From: Cetorhinus maximus
Lineage: Eukaryota
Direction of reading: 5' to 3'
NCBI RefSeq assembly: GCF_964194155.1
Contig: NC_135892.1
Span: 29,140,001 to 29,204,000 of the forward strand
Length of the DNA: 64,000 nt
Each line of letters opens with the position of its first letter. Position 1 is the first letter of the stretch. The notes beneath the pieces were generated by a model that was given only the letters and a program-made list of their open reading frames with translations, was not told where the DNA came from and made no database searches. The translations under genes were made by a program, and so were the position numbers. Positions 32,591-49,512 of this stretch are shown one piece after another.

Positions 32591-34971
32591 TGGCTTTTTG
32601 TCATGTTTAAGCAGTCTCACACCTGTTGCAAGCAGGTGGGTTTCTTTCCACTTACAGGCCCGCCTGAAAATTTCATCAGGCTGGCTTTGGGTATCAATCA
32701 GGTGGCCGAAATCCCCCCACCCTTCCAACCATTCATTCTTCAGGCACAAAGCAGGTTGCCAACATTTGAAAACTGCCCCCAAATGCCCAAGTCTGCATTT
32801 AAATATCCTTGGGGGATTGAGAGCTTGTGTTACTGTTTTCACCATCCTCTAGTTTTGTTTGAACGGTAATATGTGAGCTCCCCCAGGTGGTTTAGTTAAC
32901 AAATGAGTTACTTGGTGTGGATCTGAACCAGGCCAGAAGATTCCAGCTTCAATTCCAATCTTTTGCTGCTTTAGCTAATCCCAAGCAGGGGAGAAGGAAT
33001 GATGTTACAACTGGCTAAAGCAACCCTAGGCTAAACAGGGTTTGTGAGGGTGGAAGCTATTCAGAGTTCTTATACCCGAAAATTCCCTGCTGGTAAGTGT
33101 GTCTGGATGGTAAACATTTCAAGATTATCTTCGAGCCCTTGAATAATTAAAGATTAATCTCCACGTCACTGAGCAGCTCTGGAGAAAAATCAAAGGGGCT
33201 TTAAAAGTTGTGGGTTTTTTTTCATTTTCTTCGAACCTTTTTATTAATTGATTGTAAAAATATTGTGGGTGGGTTTAAAAAAAGACTATTTGATTTGCAA
33301 TCAAGAATCATACAATCAGTTTCTGAGAGCTGTTCACTTTCCAGCTGGCATGGGAATGTTGTGCCCTGTGAGGGTAGTTTTGTGGGGTGACCAATGGCTG
33401 GGTTGTGGGAGCTGGAGGTTAAGGCGATGAAACATCCAAGAATACATCCAACCAGTTTTGGGTCCAGGTATAATTTCTCCATGGTGGAATTGTTTGCCGG
33501 CAGTCATTGCTTGGGTCCATTTGGACCAAGTATTGAAGGGCTGCCCTCTTGTGGGATCATACCCACTCCCAGAAATATTTGACAGAGCAAGGAAAGAATA
33601 CTGAGGGCAGGGAAACAGTAAAATGTCAACTTAAGTGACACAATGCAAATGACAAATACAAGCTAAACACTGCTCAACAGGAATTCAGTAAAAGAAAAAT
33701 AATAACAACTGAGTGATTATCATGGAAACCAACATCCCCTCTGGTTTCAGAACAGCCAGAATTGCATGTTTCGCTTCATGTTTCTGTATCGTCAAAAAGG
33801 GAACAGGTGTCTCTATAGAGAACTGATTCCTAATGACATGAAAGTGTTCAAGTGTGTGTGAATGAGGGAGGAAGCCTTATAAAAATGGAATACCTTAAAT
33901 AAAAATAACCATAAATCGACTGCATAGAAAATGTTTAAGGGACTTATGATTACAGCCAACAGCAGTTGCCATTGACACTACATAATTGGGCTAAATCTGG
34001 AAGGCTTGAAAGAGTGCCAGAAAGAGTGAACTAAAAGATCATTGATCACTGAAGGCTGTTAAGAATAAATAGCAGAGAGATTCTGACATCAGGCCCAAGT
34101 ACACACAGACACACATAAAACTAACATTAACTCATTCCTGCTCTGATAGACAAAGTTCTAGAAAGTGAAATGGCAGCAGCCAATACAATATCACATCAAC
34201 ATGAATGCTTTTTGGGCTTAATGACAATATACTAAAGAAAATCAGTTAACAAAATAAAACATGGCTGAGAAAGGTGGGAGGAGACATTAACTGGTGCTGG
34301 CAATCCAGTGGCACAGTGAGGGAGCAGAGCAAGATTCCTTATCCCCTGAAATGATTTGTTCAGATCCACCCATTTGGCGCATATACTATTTGTTGACTTC
34401 TACTTGCCCTATCAACTGAGGAAACCAAAATGCCTGTCTTCCATACCCTATCAATGAGGAAGGGGCTGGGGGTGGGGAAGGGACAGGCACATATCAGGGG
34501 AAGCAAAATGGGAATCCAGTGAGAGAAATGCAAAATGTACTGTGAATGGCAGGAGCTGAAAATACATCGCGACTGTTTGCATGCAGGGCAGAAATTTTTA
34601 CGTAGGCAGTTTAATTTGGAATTGTTGGCATTTAAGCATTACCAAAAATAGGAAGTAAAGTTTCCTTTCAGGAAACACGCATAATAAACAAGCCCCTTAA
34701 TCAATTACAGATTCATATTGGTATGGAAATAGGCTATCTCTTTTTTTTTGTAAAAATATACTTTATTCATAAAAAATCTTCAATCACATTCCAAACCATT
34801 TCAAAAACAACATTACAAGGGTACAATCCAGGTTAAACTTTTACAAAATGTATCACCAGGTGCATCAGTACAAACAATATTACAATCATTTACAGCCTTT
34901 CATTTTGATCTGTACAGCCCGAGGGGCTCTAAACAGTTCCCAGTCTCTCGGTGCGCTGTGGTAGAAAGGTC

Positions 34972-37900
34972 TTAGACAGCGACCCTTCCCCATTGCGCCT
35001 TTGCGGCAGCTGCCCCAAGCTTTAGTGCGTCCCTCAGCACGTAGTCCTGGACTTTGGATTGTGCCAGTCCGCAACAATCGGTCGGGGACAACTCTTTGTG
35101 CTGGAAGACCAACAAGTTTCGGGCAGACCAAAGCGCGTCTTTCACCGAGTTGATGATCCTCCAGCTGCAGTCGATGTTTGTCTCGGTGTGTGTCCCTGGG
35201 AACAGCCCGTAGAGCACAGAGTCCTGTGTCACAGAACTGCTCGGGATGAACCTCGACAGCAACCACTGCATCTCTCTCCAGACTTTCTTTGCAAAGGCAC
35301 AATCCACAAGGAGGTGAACAACGGTCTCTTCCCCACCACAGCCACCTCGAGGGCAACGTGCAGAGGGGGTGAGACTCCTGGCGTGTAGGAAGGATCTGAC
35401 GGGGAGGGCCTTTCTCACCACCAGCCAAGCTACGTCTTGGTGCTTGTTGGAAAGTTCTGGCGATGAGGCATTCTGCCAAATGACTTTGACAGTCTGCTCG
35501 GGGAACCATCCCACAGGGTCCACCCTCTCCTTTTCCCTCAGGGCCTCTAGGACGTTACGTGCTGACCACTGCCTGATGGACTTGTGGTCAAAGGTGTTTT
35601 TCTGCATAAATTTTTCCACCAGGGACAGGTGGTACGGCGCGGTCCAACTACTTGGAGCGTTCCGCGGCAGCGTGGCCAGACCCATCCTTCGCAACACCGG
35701 GGACAGGTAGAACCTCAGCACGTAGTGACACTTGGTGTTTGCGTACTGAGGGTCTACGCACCGCTTGATGCAGCCACACACAAAGGTGGCCATCAGTATG
35801 AGGGCGATGTTGGGCACGTTTTTTCCCCCTTTATCTAGAGGCTTGTACATCGCGTCCCTGCAGACACGATCCATTTTCGACCTCCAGATAAAGCGGAAGA
35901 TGGCTCGAGTGATCGCCGTCGCGCAGGAGTGTGGAATGGGCCAGACCTGCGCCACGTACAGCAACAGCGAGAGTACCTCACACCTGATGACCAGGTTCTT
36001 ACCCGCAATGGAGAGGGAGCGTCGCTCCCACATGCCCAGTTTCCTTTTCACCATAGCCACTCGCTCCTTCCAGTTTCTAACGCATGCCCCGGTCCCTCCG
36101 AACCATATCCCCAGCACCTTCAGGCCGTCAGCCCTGACAGTGAAGGGGACAAAGGATCGGTCAGCCCAGTTCCCAAAGAACATGGCCTCGCTCTTCCCAC
36201 GATTTACCTTGGCTCCCGAGGCCAGTTCGAACTGGTCGCAGACGTGCATCAGTCTGCGCACCGACAGCGGATCCGAGCAGAAGACGGCGACGTCGTCCAT
36301 GTACAGGGAGGCTTTTACCTGAGTGCCTCCACTGCCTGGGATCGTCACTCCTCTTATGCCCGGATCCTTCCTGATGGACTCGGCAAAGGGTTCTATGCAG
36401 CACACGAAAAGGACAGGCGAGAGAGGACAGCCCTGCCTGACTCCAGATTTAATCGGAAAGCTATCTGTTTCCCACCCATTGATTGAGACTGCGCTACTGA
36501 TGTTAGTGTAGAGCAGTTGGATCCAATTTCGAATTCCCTCCCCAAACCCCATTTTGGAGAGCACATCCCCCATGTAGGTGTGCGATATTCTGTCAAAGGC
36601 CTTCTCCTGATCCAAGCTGATGAGGCAGGTATCCACACCCCTGTCCTGTACATAGGCAATCGTATCCCTGAGCAGCGCCAGGCTGTCAGAGATCTTCCTG
36701 CCTGGCACAGAGCAGGTCTGGTCAGGGTGAATCACCAATTCCAGAGCGGATTTGACCCGGTTGGCGATGACCTTGGACAGAATCTTATAGTCCACATTCA
36801 ACAGTGAAATGGGTCGCCAATTTCTAATTTCCTCCCTTTCCCCCTTGTGCTTGTAGATGAGGGTGATGATGCCTTTCCTCATGGATTCTGACATGCTGCC
36901 GGCCAGGAGCATACTCTCGTACACTTCTAGCAGGTCTGGGCCGATCAAGTCCCACAGAGCCGAATACAACTCCGCCGGCAGGCCGTCGCTTCCGGGGGTT
37001 TTACTCTTCTCGAAGGACTCGAGGGCCTTAGTCAGTTCGTCAGGAGTTAGCGGTTTGTCTAGGCTCTCCCGCGTACTGTGGTCTAAGACCTCCGTGATAG
37101 AGGACAGGAAGGACTGGGAGGCCGTGCTGTCCGTGGGCTTCACGTCATACAGACCGGCATAAAAGGATTTGCTGATCCTCAGAATGTCGGACCGTGATGA
37201 CTTTACTGAGCCGTCTTCTTCCTTCAGGCTGCTGATCACAGAGCGCTCTCTGTGTACCTTTTGGAAGAAGAAACGTGAGCACGTCTCATCCTGCTCCACG
37301 GAGCGGACTCTGGAACGGAAGATGATCTTGGAGGCCTCCGAGGCAAAGTGCGAGGCTTGCTGGCCCTTCACCTCTTGGAGCTCCTCCTTGACATCGACCC
37401 CCATCGACTGCAGCCGGAGCAGATTCTGCATCTTTTCCTGGAGTCGGGACATTTCCCTCTGTTCCTTTCTAGCTTTCTGGGTGCCTTTGCGGATGAAAAA
37501 CCTCTTGATGCTTCCCTTGATCACTTCCCACCAGTGTGTCAGGGACTCAAAGAGGGGTTTCACGGTTCTCCAACCTTTGTAATCCCTCTTGAGCTCCTCA
37601 ATGTTCTCTGGGGTCAGCAGTTGCACATTTAGCTTCCATGCCCCCCTGCCCACCCTCAGGTCTTCCTCCAAGTGGCAGTCCGCCAGTAGGAGGCAGTGGT
37701 CAGAGAAGAACACCGGCTTGACCTCGGTGGATCTGACTGTGAATGCACGGGACACAAACAGGAAGTCTATCCTGGAACGAATGGACCCGTCTGGCCGCGA
37801 CCAGGTGTATCTACGCTGCGCTCCGTCTGCAGGGTTGCTGAAGACGTCGTGCAGCTTGGCATCCTTAACTGTTTCCATCAGGGATCTGGACGTAGCGTCC

Positions 37901-38379
37901 AATCTGCTTCCGGCCCTGCCGGATCGTCCAGCCGCATCGATGATGCAGTTGAAGTCCCCGCCCAGAATGACCGGCCTGGAGGTCGCCAGCAGCAGTGGGA
38001 GCTGCTGAAAAACCTCCAGCCGCTCAGCCCCTTGTGCCGGGCCGTACACGTTAATTAACCGGAGTGGAGCGTTCTTGTACATTACGTCTGCTACCAGGAG
38101 TCGCCCGCCCACCACCTCCTTGACCTCGGAGACGGTGAAGTTGCCTCCCCGCAGCAGAATACCCAGGCCGGAGGAACGAGAGTCGTTTCCGCCCGACCAG
38201 ATCGATGGCCCGTGGGACCACCATCGTGACCATTGCCTGTAGGAGCTGAGGTGCGGTATCGCACACTCCTGCAGAAACAACAGGTCAGCTTTGACCTTGG
38301 CTAGGTAGTCCAAGGTCGCAACACATCGCGTAGTAGATTTAATGCTACGCACATTTATGGATACAATCTTTAAACCCAT
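34972..38379 (-). CDS. Tx1-type ORF2: APE endonuclease, reverse transcriptase and C-terminal zinc-binding domain (1135 aa)
   Basis: APE motifs SINVRS, LQE, NVYGP, GGDFN, YTW, RIDF, SDH. RT motifs KTPGSDG, NWRPISLLNVDYKILSK, LDQEKAFDRISH, GVRQGCPLSP, YMDD. C-terminal CPRGGCGGEETVVHLLVDC. Confidence 0.96.
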   Translation of the reverse strand: MGLKIVSINVRSIKSTTRCVATLDYLAKVKADLLFLQECAIPHLSSYRQWSRWWSHGPSIWSGGNDSRSSGLGILLRGGNFTVSEVKEVVGGRLLVADVMYKNAPLRLINVYGPAQGAERLEVFQQLPLLLATSRPVILGGDFNCIIDAAGRSGRAGSRLDATSRSLMETVKDAKLHDVFSNPADGAQRRYTWSRPDGSIRSRIDFLFVSRAFTVRSTEVKPVFFSDHCLLLADCHLEEDLRVGRGAWKLNVQLLTPENIEELKRDYKGWRTVKPLFESLTHWWEVIKGSIKRFFIRKGTQKARKEQREMSRLQEKMQNLLRLQSMGVDVKEELQEVKGQQASHFASEASKIIFRSRVRSVEQDETCSRFFFQKVHRERSVISSLKEEDGSVKSSRSDILRISKSFYAGLYDVKPTDSTASQSFLSSITEVLDHSTRESLDKPLTPDELTKALESFEKSKTPGSDGLPAELYSALWDLIGPDLLEVYESMLLAGSMSESMRKGIITLIYKHKGEREEIRNWRPISLLNVDYKILSKVIANRVKSALELVIHPDQTCSVPGRKISDSLALLRDTIAYVQDRGVDTCLISLDQEKAFDRISHTYMGDVLSKMGFGEGIRNWIQLLYTNISSAVSINGWETDSFPIKSGVRQGCPLSPVLFVCCIEPFAESIRKDPGIRGVTIPGSGGTQVKASLYMDDVAVFCSDPLSVRRLMHVCDQFELASGAKVNRGKSEAMFFGNWADRSFVPFTVRADGLKVLGIWFGGTGACVRNWKERVAMVKRKLGMWERRSLSIAGKNLVIRCEVLSLLLYVAQVWPIPHSCATAITRAIFRFIWRSKMDRVCRDAMYKPLDKGGKNVPNIALILMATFVCGCIKRCVDPQYANTKCHYVLRFYLSPVLRRMGLATLPRNAPSSWTAPYHLSLVEKFMQKNTFDHKSIRQWSARNVLEALREKERVDPVGWFPEQTVKVIWQNASSPELSNKHQDVAWLVVRKALPVRSFLHARSLTPSARCPRGGCGGEETVVHLLVDCAFAKKVWREMQWLLSRFIPSSSVTQDSVLYGLFPGTHTETNIDCSWRIINSVKDALWSARNLLVFQHKELSPTDCCGLAQSKVQDYVLRDALKLGAAAAKAQWGRVAV

Positions 38380-38389
38380 TTTAAAGCAT

Positions 38390-39949
38390 TTATTCTCCTA
38401 CCAAACCCACTGTCTCTGAGAGTCCCAGACCTTTAGTCTGCTCCTTCATACCCGTAGTGAGCTCAAATTCCTTCACTTTGGATGGGCTGAGGTAGATCTC
38501 CTTGGCCGTGTTCTGCTCCAGTGGCATCTGGAGGTTCACGTAGTGAGCGGGTTTTGAGATGACCTTTGCTGGAGAAGCTTCTCCAAAACTCACCCCCTCT
38601 GGGGGGTTGCTGTTCCCGGCTTCCTGGAGCTGGGGTGCGATGATTGCCTCACTGCTCCCAGATTCCAGGGGCTGTGGTGCACTGGCCTCCTCAGGTTGCA
38701 GGCAAAGTTGGGGTGCGCTGGTCTCCTTGTTGTCTCCAATTTTCTGGAGCTCGGGTGTCTCGTCCTCCAACGCCCTGGAGCTTTGCCGCCTCTTCTGTCG
38801 GTGCCGCTCTGGCACTTCATCATCCGAAGAGCTGCTGCCCTTGTCATCCGTGTCGGATGGGAGACGCCTCTTGCCGCTTCTCTGGGAAACGCCTTTGCTT
38901 CTTCTTCGCTCCCTCTTACTTTTCTTGTTCTTCACCGTCCGCCACTCCCCCTGCTGCTTTTCCACTGCTGCCTCCTCCTCCATTGATTCGCTGTCCTGAG
39001 GGCTGGAAGGTTCAGGGGGTAGTGCTGTTGATTGGCTCTCTGTTGCCTCAATCTCTTTCTCCACCTTGTCTCTCTCTGTGTCCTCCTTTGTCCCGTTGAG
39101 CTCCCTGGGGGCCTTGGTGGTTGGAGTGACACGGAACCTTTCTTCTGCTTCCCCCTGGTCGGCTTTGGCTGCCTGTGCGTAAGTACGGCAGCGTTTGGGG
39201 CAGGTCCTGTAGAGGTGACTTGCCTCGCCACACAGGTTGCAGCACTTGGCCTGTTTGCAGTCTTTTGTCTGGTGCCCTTCCTGTTTGCAGATCTTGCAGA
39301 GGGAGGCGCTGCAGTTGGCCGCCACATGGCCAGCCTTGCCGCATGAGCGACAATGCTTGGGTTGCCCAGCGTAGACCAGGTAGCCCCGGTTTCCCCCGAT
39401 TGCGAAACTGGAAGGAGGGTGGAAAATGGCTCCCTTACCATCGGTCTTTAGCGTGACCTTAAACAGGCGTTTGCCTGTCCAGATCCCCAAGTCGTCTCGA
39501 ATCTCGGTGCCGCTCCCCACCTTATCGAAGTACCTGGTGAGGAAGGTGACCACGTCGGCGACAGGGACGAAGGGGTTGTACACATGCACCATCACCTCAC
39601 GTTCCCGTTGCAACGGCAGAGAAAAGTGCGGCTCCGCCGTCAGGATCTTCATCTCCGGCAGGTCTCTCTTCTCCTCGAACACCCTCAGGAGCCGGACGCA
39701 GTCTGCCACTCGCTTGAAAGTCACGTCAAAATAACCACCTTTGCGGGAGTCGTGCAGGGTGAAGATCTCCGTAGCTTGGAAGCCGCACGCCTTCAACAGG
39801 ATCCTCCTGGTGAAGAAGCCCCGATCCATAGGTGATCCTCCTTCGCTGTGGTTCACCGTGACTCGGACGGTGATAGGTAACCCACGGTATAGATTTGGAT
39901 TGCGATTGGTTATCGCCCTTCCATCCCGACCTTGCCATGGCAGGACCAT
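38390..39949 (-). CDS. Tx1-type ORF1: Gag-like nucleic-acid-binding protein with three CCHC zinc knuckles (ZCCHC3-like architecture)
   Basis: Three CX2CX4HX4C knuckles (CRSCGKAGHVAANC, CKICKQEGHQTKDC, CNLCGEASHLYRTC) and a basic/acidic low-complexity C-terminus. The first in-frame ATG (ACCATGG) is at 39949; the track's TTG start at 39982 lies inside the U2 fragment. Confidence 0.9.
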   Translation of the reverse strand: MVLPWQGRDGRAITNRNPNLYRGLPITVRVTVNHSEGGSPMDRGFFTRRILLKACGFQATEIFTLHDSRKGGYFDVTFKRVADCVRLLRVFEEKRDLPEMKILTAEPHFSLPLQREREVMVHVYNPFVPVADVVTFLTRYFDKVGSGTEIRDDLGIWTGKRLFKVTLKTDGKGAIFHPPSSFAIGGNRGYLVYAGQPKHCRSCGKAGHVAANCSASLCKICKQEGHQTKDCKQAKCCNLCGEASHLYRTCPKRCRTYAQAAKADQGEAEERFRVTPTTKAPRELNGTKEDTERDKVEKEIEATESQSTALPPEPSSPQDSESMEEEAAVEKQQGEWRTVKNKKSKRERRRSKGVSQRSGKRRLPSDTDDKGSSSSDDEVPERHRQKRRQSSRALEDETPELQKIGDNKETSAPQLCLQPEEASAPQPLESGSSEAIIAPQLQEAGNSNPPEGVSFGEASPAKVISKPAHYVNLQMPLEQNTAKEIYLSPSKVKEFELTTGMKEQTKGLGLSETVGLVGE

Positions 39950-39964
39950 GGTGTCGCCCCTGCA

Positions 39965-39998
39965 ACACTTGATCTTAGCCAAAAGGCCGAGAAGCGAT
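39965..39998 (-). pseudogene. U2 snRNA 5' fragment (nt 1-34) forming the head of the Tx1 element
   Basis: Minus strand reads ATCGCTTCTCGGCCTTTTGGCTAAGATCAAGTGT, identical to the recalled vertebrate U2 5' end starting at +1. The rest of U2 is not present at the element's 3' junction. Confidence 0.95.
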
Positions 39999-40155
39999 CT
40001 ATCTCATTGTTATTTTATTACTGTATGCGGTACTTTGCTATGTGCAGATTGGCTGCCATGTCTCCAACATCACAACAGTGGCTACACTTCAAAAGCACTT
40101 CACTGGCTGTAAGCAATTTGGGAAGTCCTGAAGTCATGAGAGGCGGGATAGATAT
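39999..40155 (+). mobile_element. Deu-domain SINE 3' fragment forming the insertion site of the Tx1 element
   Basis: ctatctcattgttattttattactgtatgcgg...ggctgccatgtctccaacatcacaacagtggctacacttcaaaag matches the SINE copy at 53965-54110. Confidence 0.7.
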
Positions 40156-48770: not shown

Positions 48771-48970
48771 TATGTTAATGAAGACAGATATTTTTTCTTG
48801 TAAGTTATTGTGATATTGATCACCTCAGTTTCAGAACCATTTTCAAAATTCAATTATTTTAAAATGAATTCTCATTTAACATCACAATCTTTTTATACGT
48901 TCAATGGTACCAATATAATCTGATTCCAAAGAAAAGAAACTTCTAATAATTGGAATTTCTTTTGCAGATT

Positions 48971-49043
48971 CAATTGTCTTGCACTGTTTTTCAAGGTTGG
49001 CATGATACACATGCCAACCTTGAAAAACAGTGCAAGACAATTG
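48971..49043. repeat. Perfect palindrome: 34-bp stem, 5-nt loop
   Basis: caattgtcttgcactgtttttcaaggttggcatg-ataca-catgccaaccttgaaaaacagtgcaagacaattg. Confidence 0.97.
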
Positions 49044-49512
49044 GCATTTTAAAAATGCCTACACAAGATAGTAGGAAAACCTGACAAACCTAAAGAAGCT
49101 CTGAATATAGGCCTATGATGTGTATTTACATTGTACAGACTGATATAGAATTTTAGAAAAAGCTTTTTAAAATGTTTCTTTAAAAAAAAGCTTACACAGC
49201 CTCCAAAACAGCTGATAGCTCAGAAGCAGCCCTGATGTGAAAACAGGTGGTTAACTGGGGACTTTGTAATTTAAGAAACCTACATTCCTTCACTTGTATT
49301 AAAAGGAAAAACAATACAAGGAGATGAAAGTCTGAAGGGAAATACACAGGCACAGAATTTCCCCTGGAAATTAATTTTGCATTAGATGTCAGCCCAATAG
49401 TTAATATGGCCCACATCATTCTTTTTATGTTTTAGAGCTACTGGTACTAGTGCTGCTGTTTTAAATCAGATGACTGCCAAGCGGCATTTATAGTGAGCAA
49501 GGAGAAATCTTG

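Follow-up and report, generated by a model that had tools for sequence, protein, structure and literature searches.

How does a long interspersed element (LINE) come to begin with the first bases of U2 small nuclear RNA (snRNA) at a place that is not a U2 gene? The question is raised by a stretch of 64,000 nucleotides (nt) of Cetorhinus maximus DNA (contig NC_135892.1, positions 29,140,001 to 29,204,000), hereafter called the window, whose minus strand carries a Tx1-clade LINE with a U2 head. The original prediction for this stretch proposed that sources inside U2 genes use the U2 promoter for their transcription and insert at non-U2 targets; the proposal is supported and fits every genomic test that we ran. 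Judged from sequence comparisons, the element is very probably a young Keno-type Tx1 LINE whose U2-resident sources would be transcribed from U2 promoters and seed copies genome-wide.

An intact Tx1 LINE with a U2 head

The element and its upstream flank are composed as follows (window positions; open reading frame, ORF; target-site duplication, TSD; untranslated region, UTR):

40010..40144, no strand assigned: fragment of an old dispersed repeat, host DNA upstream of the element and no part of it (similarity)
39999..40005, minus strand: 5′ copy of the TSD, 7 bp, alternatively 6 bp and one untemplated G (sequence)
39965..39998, minus strand: head, U2 snRNA nt 1-34, junction type A, U2 allele T (U2 comparison)
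39950..39964, minus strand: element-specific leader of 15 nt ahead of the first ATG (sequence)
38390..39949, minus strand: ORF1, 519 amino acids (aa), with the 3-nt deletion of sublineage II (open frame and Pfam)
34972..38379, minus strand: ORF2, 1135 aa, with apurinic/apyrimidinic (AP)-type endonuclease, reverse transcriptase (YMDD at 693) and zf-RVT (Pfam)
34750..34971, minus strand: 3′ UTR, with AATAAA inside it at 34767-34762 (sequence)
34741..34749, minus strand: A9 tail (sequence)
34734..34740, minus strand: 3′ copy of the TSD (sequence)

The head had been described as an exact copy of U2 nt 1-34, and positions 39998-39965 indeed match the genome's own U2 genes at 34 of 34 bases; of 30 U2 loci compared, 13 show no mismatch to the head. 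Rfam also reports U2 here (E 0.0012), at a score under the gathering cut-off because the match is limited to the U2 5′ end. Both predicted ORFs are open (519 and 1135 aa), AATAAA and the A9 tail are in place, and the first ATG lies at element position 50 (39949), as stated. According to Pfam, ORF1 contains two ZCCHC3-type RNA-binding domains and one weak zinc knuckle, and the N-terminus of ORF2 is an Exo_endo_phos domain, not the restriction-like endonuclease of Utopia elements. With a length of 5.26 kb and two open ORFs, the element is not one of the short, non-coding and non-autonomous SINEU elements either. The best full-length homologues are amphibian proteins (46%); homologous fragments at 72-76% occur in Heterodontus and Scyliorhinus proteins.

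The 7-bp TSD enclosing the U2 head is exact at 40005-39999 and 34740-34734, with 6 bp plus an extra G as an alternative reading. Two further claims about the surroundings held up: U2 nt 35 onward is absent after the tail, and the upstream flank differs from the U2 promoter. Both flanks had been taken for an old short interspersed element (SINE) remnant, which applies to one side only. Upstream, an old repeat spans about 40010-40144, with 72-90% similarity to four other places in the window and to six fetched loci; it is presumably a SINE. The downstream 300 nt match nothing elsewhere among the sequences compared.

The U2 head is a trait of the family

Tabulation of the junctions across copies had been set beforehand as the test of the prediction, which it passed: heads are nearly universal, and copies inside U2 genes exist. 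A 5′ search pattern of 37 bases, only two of them from the head, gave 260 exact matches. Among the first 100 matches listed (contigs C1-C15), 98 carry a U2 head of at least 10 nt and 40 begin at +1, which rules out a one-off template-switch chimera. U2 directly follows one of these 100 5′ ends; the other 99 and the window copy are not followed by U2. Insertion in this family is thus not restricted to U2 genes, in contrast to what is described for Keno.

The dispersed set comprised 126 copies, three of 129 rows having been excluded because their truncation falls within the body's first 60 nt; from the body comparison, 5 of 101 rows were excluded for want of a usable full body. A U2 head of at least 10 nt is present in 122 of the 126 copies and starts at +1 in 53; in none of these 53 does the match to the sequence upstream of U2 exceed 4 nt. 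Both ORFs are intact in 108 of 126, and a TSD of 5-35 bp, most commonly 15-16 bp, was found in 89 of the 121 copies with a 3′ end. When an ORF1-internal marker without head bases was used, 72 of 76 copies were headed and the remaining four were truncated. The heads end at two junctions, A (U2 1-34) and B (U2 1-37 plus two bases), and carry one of two U2 alleles (T, C); all four combinations (AT, AC, BT, BC) occur in dispersed copies. The copies are about 99% alike and strongly mosaic, the four-gamete test failing for 1617 of 2278 column pairs; because of this mosaicism, a clean tracing from parent to offspring was unsuccessful.

Since the junction is known from the assembly alone, it might be an assembly artefact, or else the head a chance similarity. 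We regard both as scarcely credible: the U2-LINE junction of the window copy recurs at more than 120 loci that differ in their flanks and each have a TSD of their own, and all 34 of its head bases match the genome's U2.

Head-to-tail pairs sharing one TSD were seen in 20 of the 126 dispersed copies (e.g. L176, L198, L234-L236), which suggests repeated insertion at one site. Older copies (L152, and L281 on C159; 90-92% identity) are also U2-headed, and one is preceded by a U2 promoter; the U2-head arrangement is therefore long-standing.

Promoter-backed copies in U2 genes

In 12 cases a copy directly follows the sequence that stands upstream of an intact U2 gene, and a DNA search extended this to 19 loci consisting of promoter, head and body. 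Instead of the single master copy originally envisaged, there are many sources. All 12 fully read promoter loci have open ORFs (520 and 1135 aa) and continue into U2 nt 39 onward, and all four head types are represented among them. The bodies of 47 dispersed lineage-I copies differ from the nearest of the 12 loci by a median of 16 substitutions.

Six other loci (L282-L286, L291) combine an intact U2 promoter and U2 nt 1 to about 42-53 with a truncated LINE or SINE-like element; these U2 genes could be transcribed as chimeras too.

Promoterless U2 units provide a control. Tandem arrays of ~5.5 kb (C29:4.23-5.16 Mb and C30:5.45-5.48 Mb; L313-L332) consist of promoterless U2 plus a 105-nt flank, and nearly all units are interrupted by the LINE. 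A head variant marked by a change at U2 nt 25 matched 129 times, and the matches inspected lie in tandem promoterless U2 units. Matches were listed in contig order and the first was on C29, so that C1-C28 contain no nt-25-marked head. A head without an upstream promoter left no dispersed progeny, and a role of the C29/C30 arrays as sources of the dispersed copies is not supported.

Based on these observations, we propose the following cycle. Source copies would reside inside U2 genes, right behind the U2 promoter, where RNA polymerase II (Pol II) would start at U2 +1 and read 5.3 kb to yield a capped U2(1-34/37)-LINE RNA, polyadenylated at the element's own signal or at one further on. ORF1 and ORF2 would be translated, and the ORF2 protein would nick the target and prime reverse transcription, the RNA probably inserting back into U2 as well as at loosely U2-like sites genome-wide, the window included. 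At a U2 gene, pairing of the complementary DNA's head with the U2 arm upstream would restore a source with a promoter (junction A), and junction B would arise by a short microhomology slip. At non-U2 sites the head would merely be copied, leaving a protein-intact, likely promoterless dead-end copy. The autonomy claimed for the window element would then hold for its proteins and likely not for its transcription. Turnover of the U2 arrays would replace old sources.

Alternatively, each insertion could acquire its head anew, the enzyme switching from LINE RNA to U2 snRNA as template, as in U6/L1 chimeras. The enzyme does produce chimeras of the template-switch type with small RNAs: truncated LINE copies have a complete U6 snRNA or, in two cases, a transfer RNA (tRNA) fused to their 5′ side (L154:1558-1664; L140:1404-1475; L102:1563-1653). 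The high mosaicism of the copies would also fit such switching. Mature U2 is itself capped and would likewise leave a cap-derived G. Yet in the chimeras with U6 and tRNA the junction lies at an internal, truncated position of the LINE, and of the first 100 5′ ends in the list, 98 are headed, with only two U2 breakpoints, both also found at promoter loci; these fixed junctions differ from the rare, independent and variable ones of U6/L1 chimeras. Template switching is therefore very unlikely. A switch guided by a head already present on the RNA would be indistinguishable from promoter-driven transcription of U2-resident sources, which it presupposes.

Probable traces of a capped, read-through RNA

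Thirteen copies have extra bases between the TSD and +1, and in 11 of them the last base is a G (binomial p 1.1e-5); the other 28 copies that start at +1 and have a TSD are uninformative for this test. Among copies truncated within the head, extra bases end in G in 0 of 6. An untemplated G has been linked to cap copying in L1 (PMC9341517), and we read the G before U2 +1 as a cap signature.

The 3′ ends suggest where the RNA was transcribed. Of 32 junctions between tail and U2 on the large contigs, 30 were mapped, and most read tail, U2 nt 38-5x, truncated copy, poly(A) and non-U2 DNA. This composite arrangement is also seen downstream of several U2-resident copies. Twenty composites were fetched in full, of which 19 remained because L385 could not be mapped. 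In 9 of these 19, a non-U2 TSD encloses the whole composite (element, U2 piece and downstream piece); a further, full-length case is L178, with a 22-bp TSD. Six of the nine are 5′-truncated and have no U2 upstream, and are therefore 3′ transductions from U2-resident sources. Insertion into a U2 pseudogene is thereby excluded for these six; for headed composites such as L377 and L390 it is possible. In mismatch counts, each of the six lies nearer to the window copy than to either of two promoter loci used for comparison (10 against 26-27 mismatches for L382, 6 against 16-17 for L386).

Sublineage II and the case for a captured head

The window copy belongs to sublineage II, defined by the 3-nt deletion in ORF1. 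The marker has 132 matches; 4 listed on C30 and 32 outside those listed were left out of the comparison. Several observations weigh against transcription from U2-resident sources as the origin of the window copy. Sublineage II gave 0 matches in the assembly behind either type of U2 promoter and is absent from the 19 promoter loci. The window copy is 38-42 substitutions away from the 12 promoter loci and has 0 private substitutions; it therefore looks recent. The heads of sublineage II vary little, 61 of 75 being of type AT, as would be expected of a captured head. The remaining points are more general. Silencing, a recent amplification or an effect of the marker change itself may account for the lack of dispersed progeny of the nt-25-marked control copies, and the G before +1 indicates a capped start at U2 +1 and is silent on which promoter was used. 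L101 and L104 are dispersed composites with a common junction, so that a dispersed copy could have been the parent. The support for U2-promoter transcription comes from signatures in DNA.

Much of this would suit the second possibility raised originally, that the head has been captured permanently as a 5′ UTR. In this form sublineage II would have captured the head, and its dispersed copies would be transcribed from an internal or neighbouring promoter and no longer depend on a U2 gene; the intact ORFs in 108 of the 126 dispersed copies also speak for it. Against it, close relatives of the window copy carry 3′-transduced U2 pieces with many different junctions, and all 20 of the sublineage II copies fetched from C29/C30 are inserted in promoterless U2 units. 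The marked promoterless heads have no dispersed match, and only 15 element-specific bases precede the ATG. Sublineage II also carries more private substitutions (median 5 vs 2, p about 1e-5), which suggests that it is older on average and fits a loss of its sources. Head capture is therefore disfavoured, and for sublineage II we consider it improbable. A more specific version, in which sublineage II escaped from U2 genes with the 34-nt head and the ORF1 start acting as a self-sufficient Pol II promoter and with repeats as insertion hot spots, seems to us just as doubtful. If true, it would make the element an autonomous snRNA-headed LINE in transition from Keno to the crocodilian-type Tx1-Mar/SINEU state.

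Sublineage II sources that are lost, unassembled or present at the population level are the simpler reading. Turnover of the U2 arrays would account for the lack of any remaining source of the older sublineage II in the assembly.

Relation to known snRNA-associated elements

Keno was reportedly introduced by Kojima and Fujiwara in 2004 as a U2-specific LINE of the Tx1 clade. It is also described in PMC4494074, PMC4640811 and PMC6136364. The window family resembles Keno in its ORF2 with AP-type endonuclease and reverse transcriptase, its separate ORF1 with zinc knuckles, and its 3′ junction at U2 nt 38/39; unlike Keno, it has many dispersed insertions with a U2 5′ end and a weak site preference. 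Domains and target site agree with Keno and the lack of restriction to U2 genes does not, which makes the family a Keno-type variant and not a strict Keno; no named Keno protein is among the 47 homologues.

The original prediction overrated the novelty of the arrangement, because U2-headed Tx1 families were reported before (PMC4494074). Crocodilian Tx1-Mar elements carry heads from U2 (Tx1-11_Crp) or U1 (Tx1-2_Crp, Tx1-2B_Crp and Tx1-4_AMi; PMC4494074). Like the window family, with 122 of 126 copies headed, they are Keno-related Tx1 LINEs with an snRNA 5′ end outside snRNA genes. However, they are old (85-87% to consensus) and prefer Mariner-N4 or long terminal repeat elements, and the passages of PMC4494074 consulted report no U2-resident source for them, whereas the window family has promoter-backed sources and still targets U2. 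SINEU elements share the snRNA-derived head, the poly(A) tail and tandem copies with a common TSD, but are short and non-coding. For SINEU as well as for the crocodilian Tx1 elements, the mode of transcription was left open and the heads were attributed to template switching (PMC4494074).

Utopia uses the identical U2 site, and its reptile families are weakly specific; it differs in its restriction-like endonuclease, and the available part of PMC4640811 reports no U2 head on dispersed copies. R2 in 28S ribosomal DNA likewise depends on co-transcription with its target gene (cited in PMC4494074). Its RNA polymerase I co-transcript is cut by a ribozyme, whereas the host-RNA 5′ end of the window family appears to be kept on the template.

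No account of Keno being transcribed from the U2 promoter, or of a shark LINE with a U2 head, turned up in our literature search, which did not extend to Repbase Reports, subscription papers or supplements, where such an account may exist. While snRNA-headed Tx1 LINEs are already known, what is new is a young family that shows the probable borrowed-promoter route in its DNA, young enough for sources, head alleles, cap signature and transductions to be read together. Co-transcription from the promoter of the target gene would be a second route to snRNA heads besides template switching. If true, an snRNA promoter makes a 5.3-kb polyadenylated and translated RNA, and the intact, likely silent copies spread through the genome are supplied by about 20 loci inside U2 genes.

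Target sites and accompanying elements

Family tails joined to U2 nt 39 onward were found at 787 junctions, 32 on C1-C25 and the other 755 from C29 onward; with so many interrupted junctions, the U2 arrays are heavily parasitised. A different tail pattern gave 1683 matches genome-wide, a number that is not to be divided by 787 since the patterns differ. The flank is identical to the published Keno target, as given in PMC6136364 and PMC4640811. Off-target sites resemble the U2 site weakly at -4..+1 (67 sites; mean 4.82 of 14 bases vs 2.9-4.55 in shifted controls), where the A at -1 is partly a product of the site alignment. A strong U2-like consensus at these sites was rejected.

Most flanks of dispersed copies are unique; 18 belong to four shared repeat clusters with recurrent insertions (L186, L193, L206, L227, L233, L247, L257, L350 and L367; L183, L228 and L251; L203 and L225; L185, L211 and L262). 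These repeats are a possible secondary target, comparable to those of crocodilian Tx1-Mar.

The sites used by the LINE, the U2 site included, also carry a young SINE-like element that is ~150 bp long, varies in its tail and is flanked by TSDs (L151, L153, L165, L193, L207, L215, L234, L281-L283 and L295). Rfam gave no match for it in L153 or L282, and it is likely a non-autonomous partner of the LINE. Processed-looking U2 copies were seen at L051, L054 and L045, some with 3′ flank and poly(A) tail. Elsewhere in the window, positions 48963-49052 form a 90-bp near-perfect palindrome that matched several microRNA models below their cut-offs and is likely a small inverted-repeat element.

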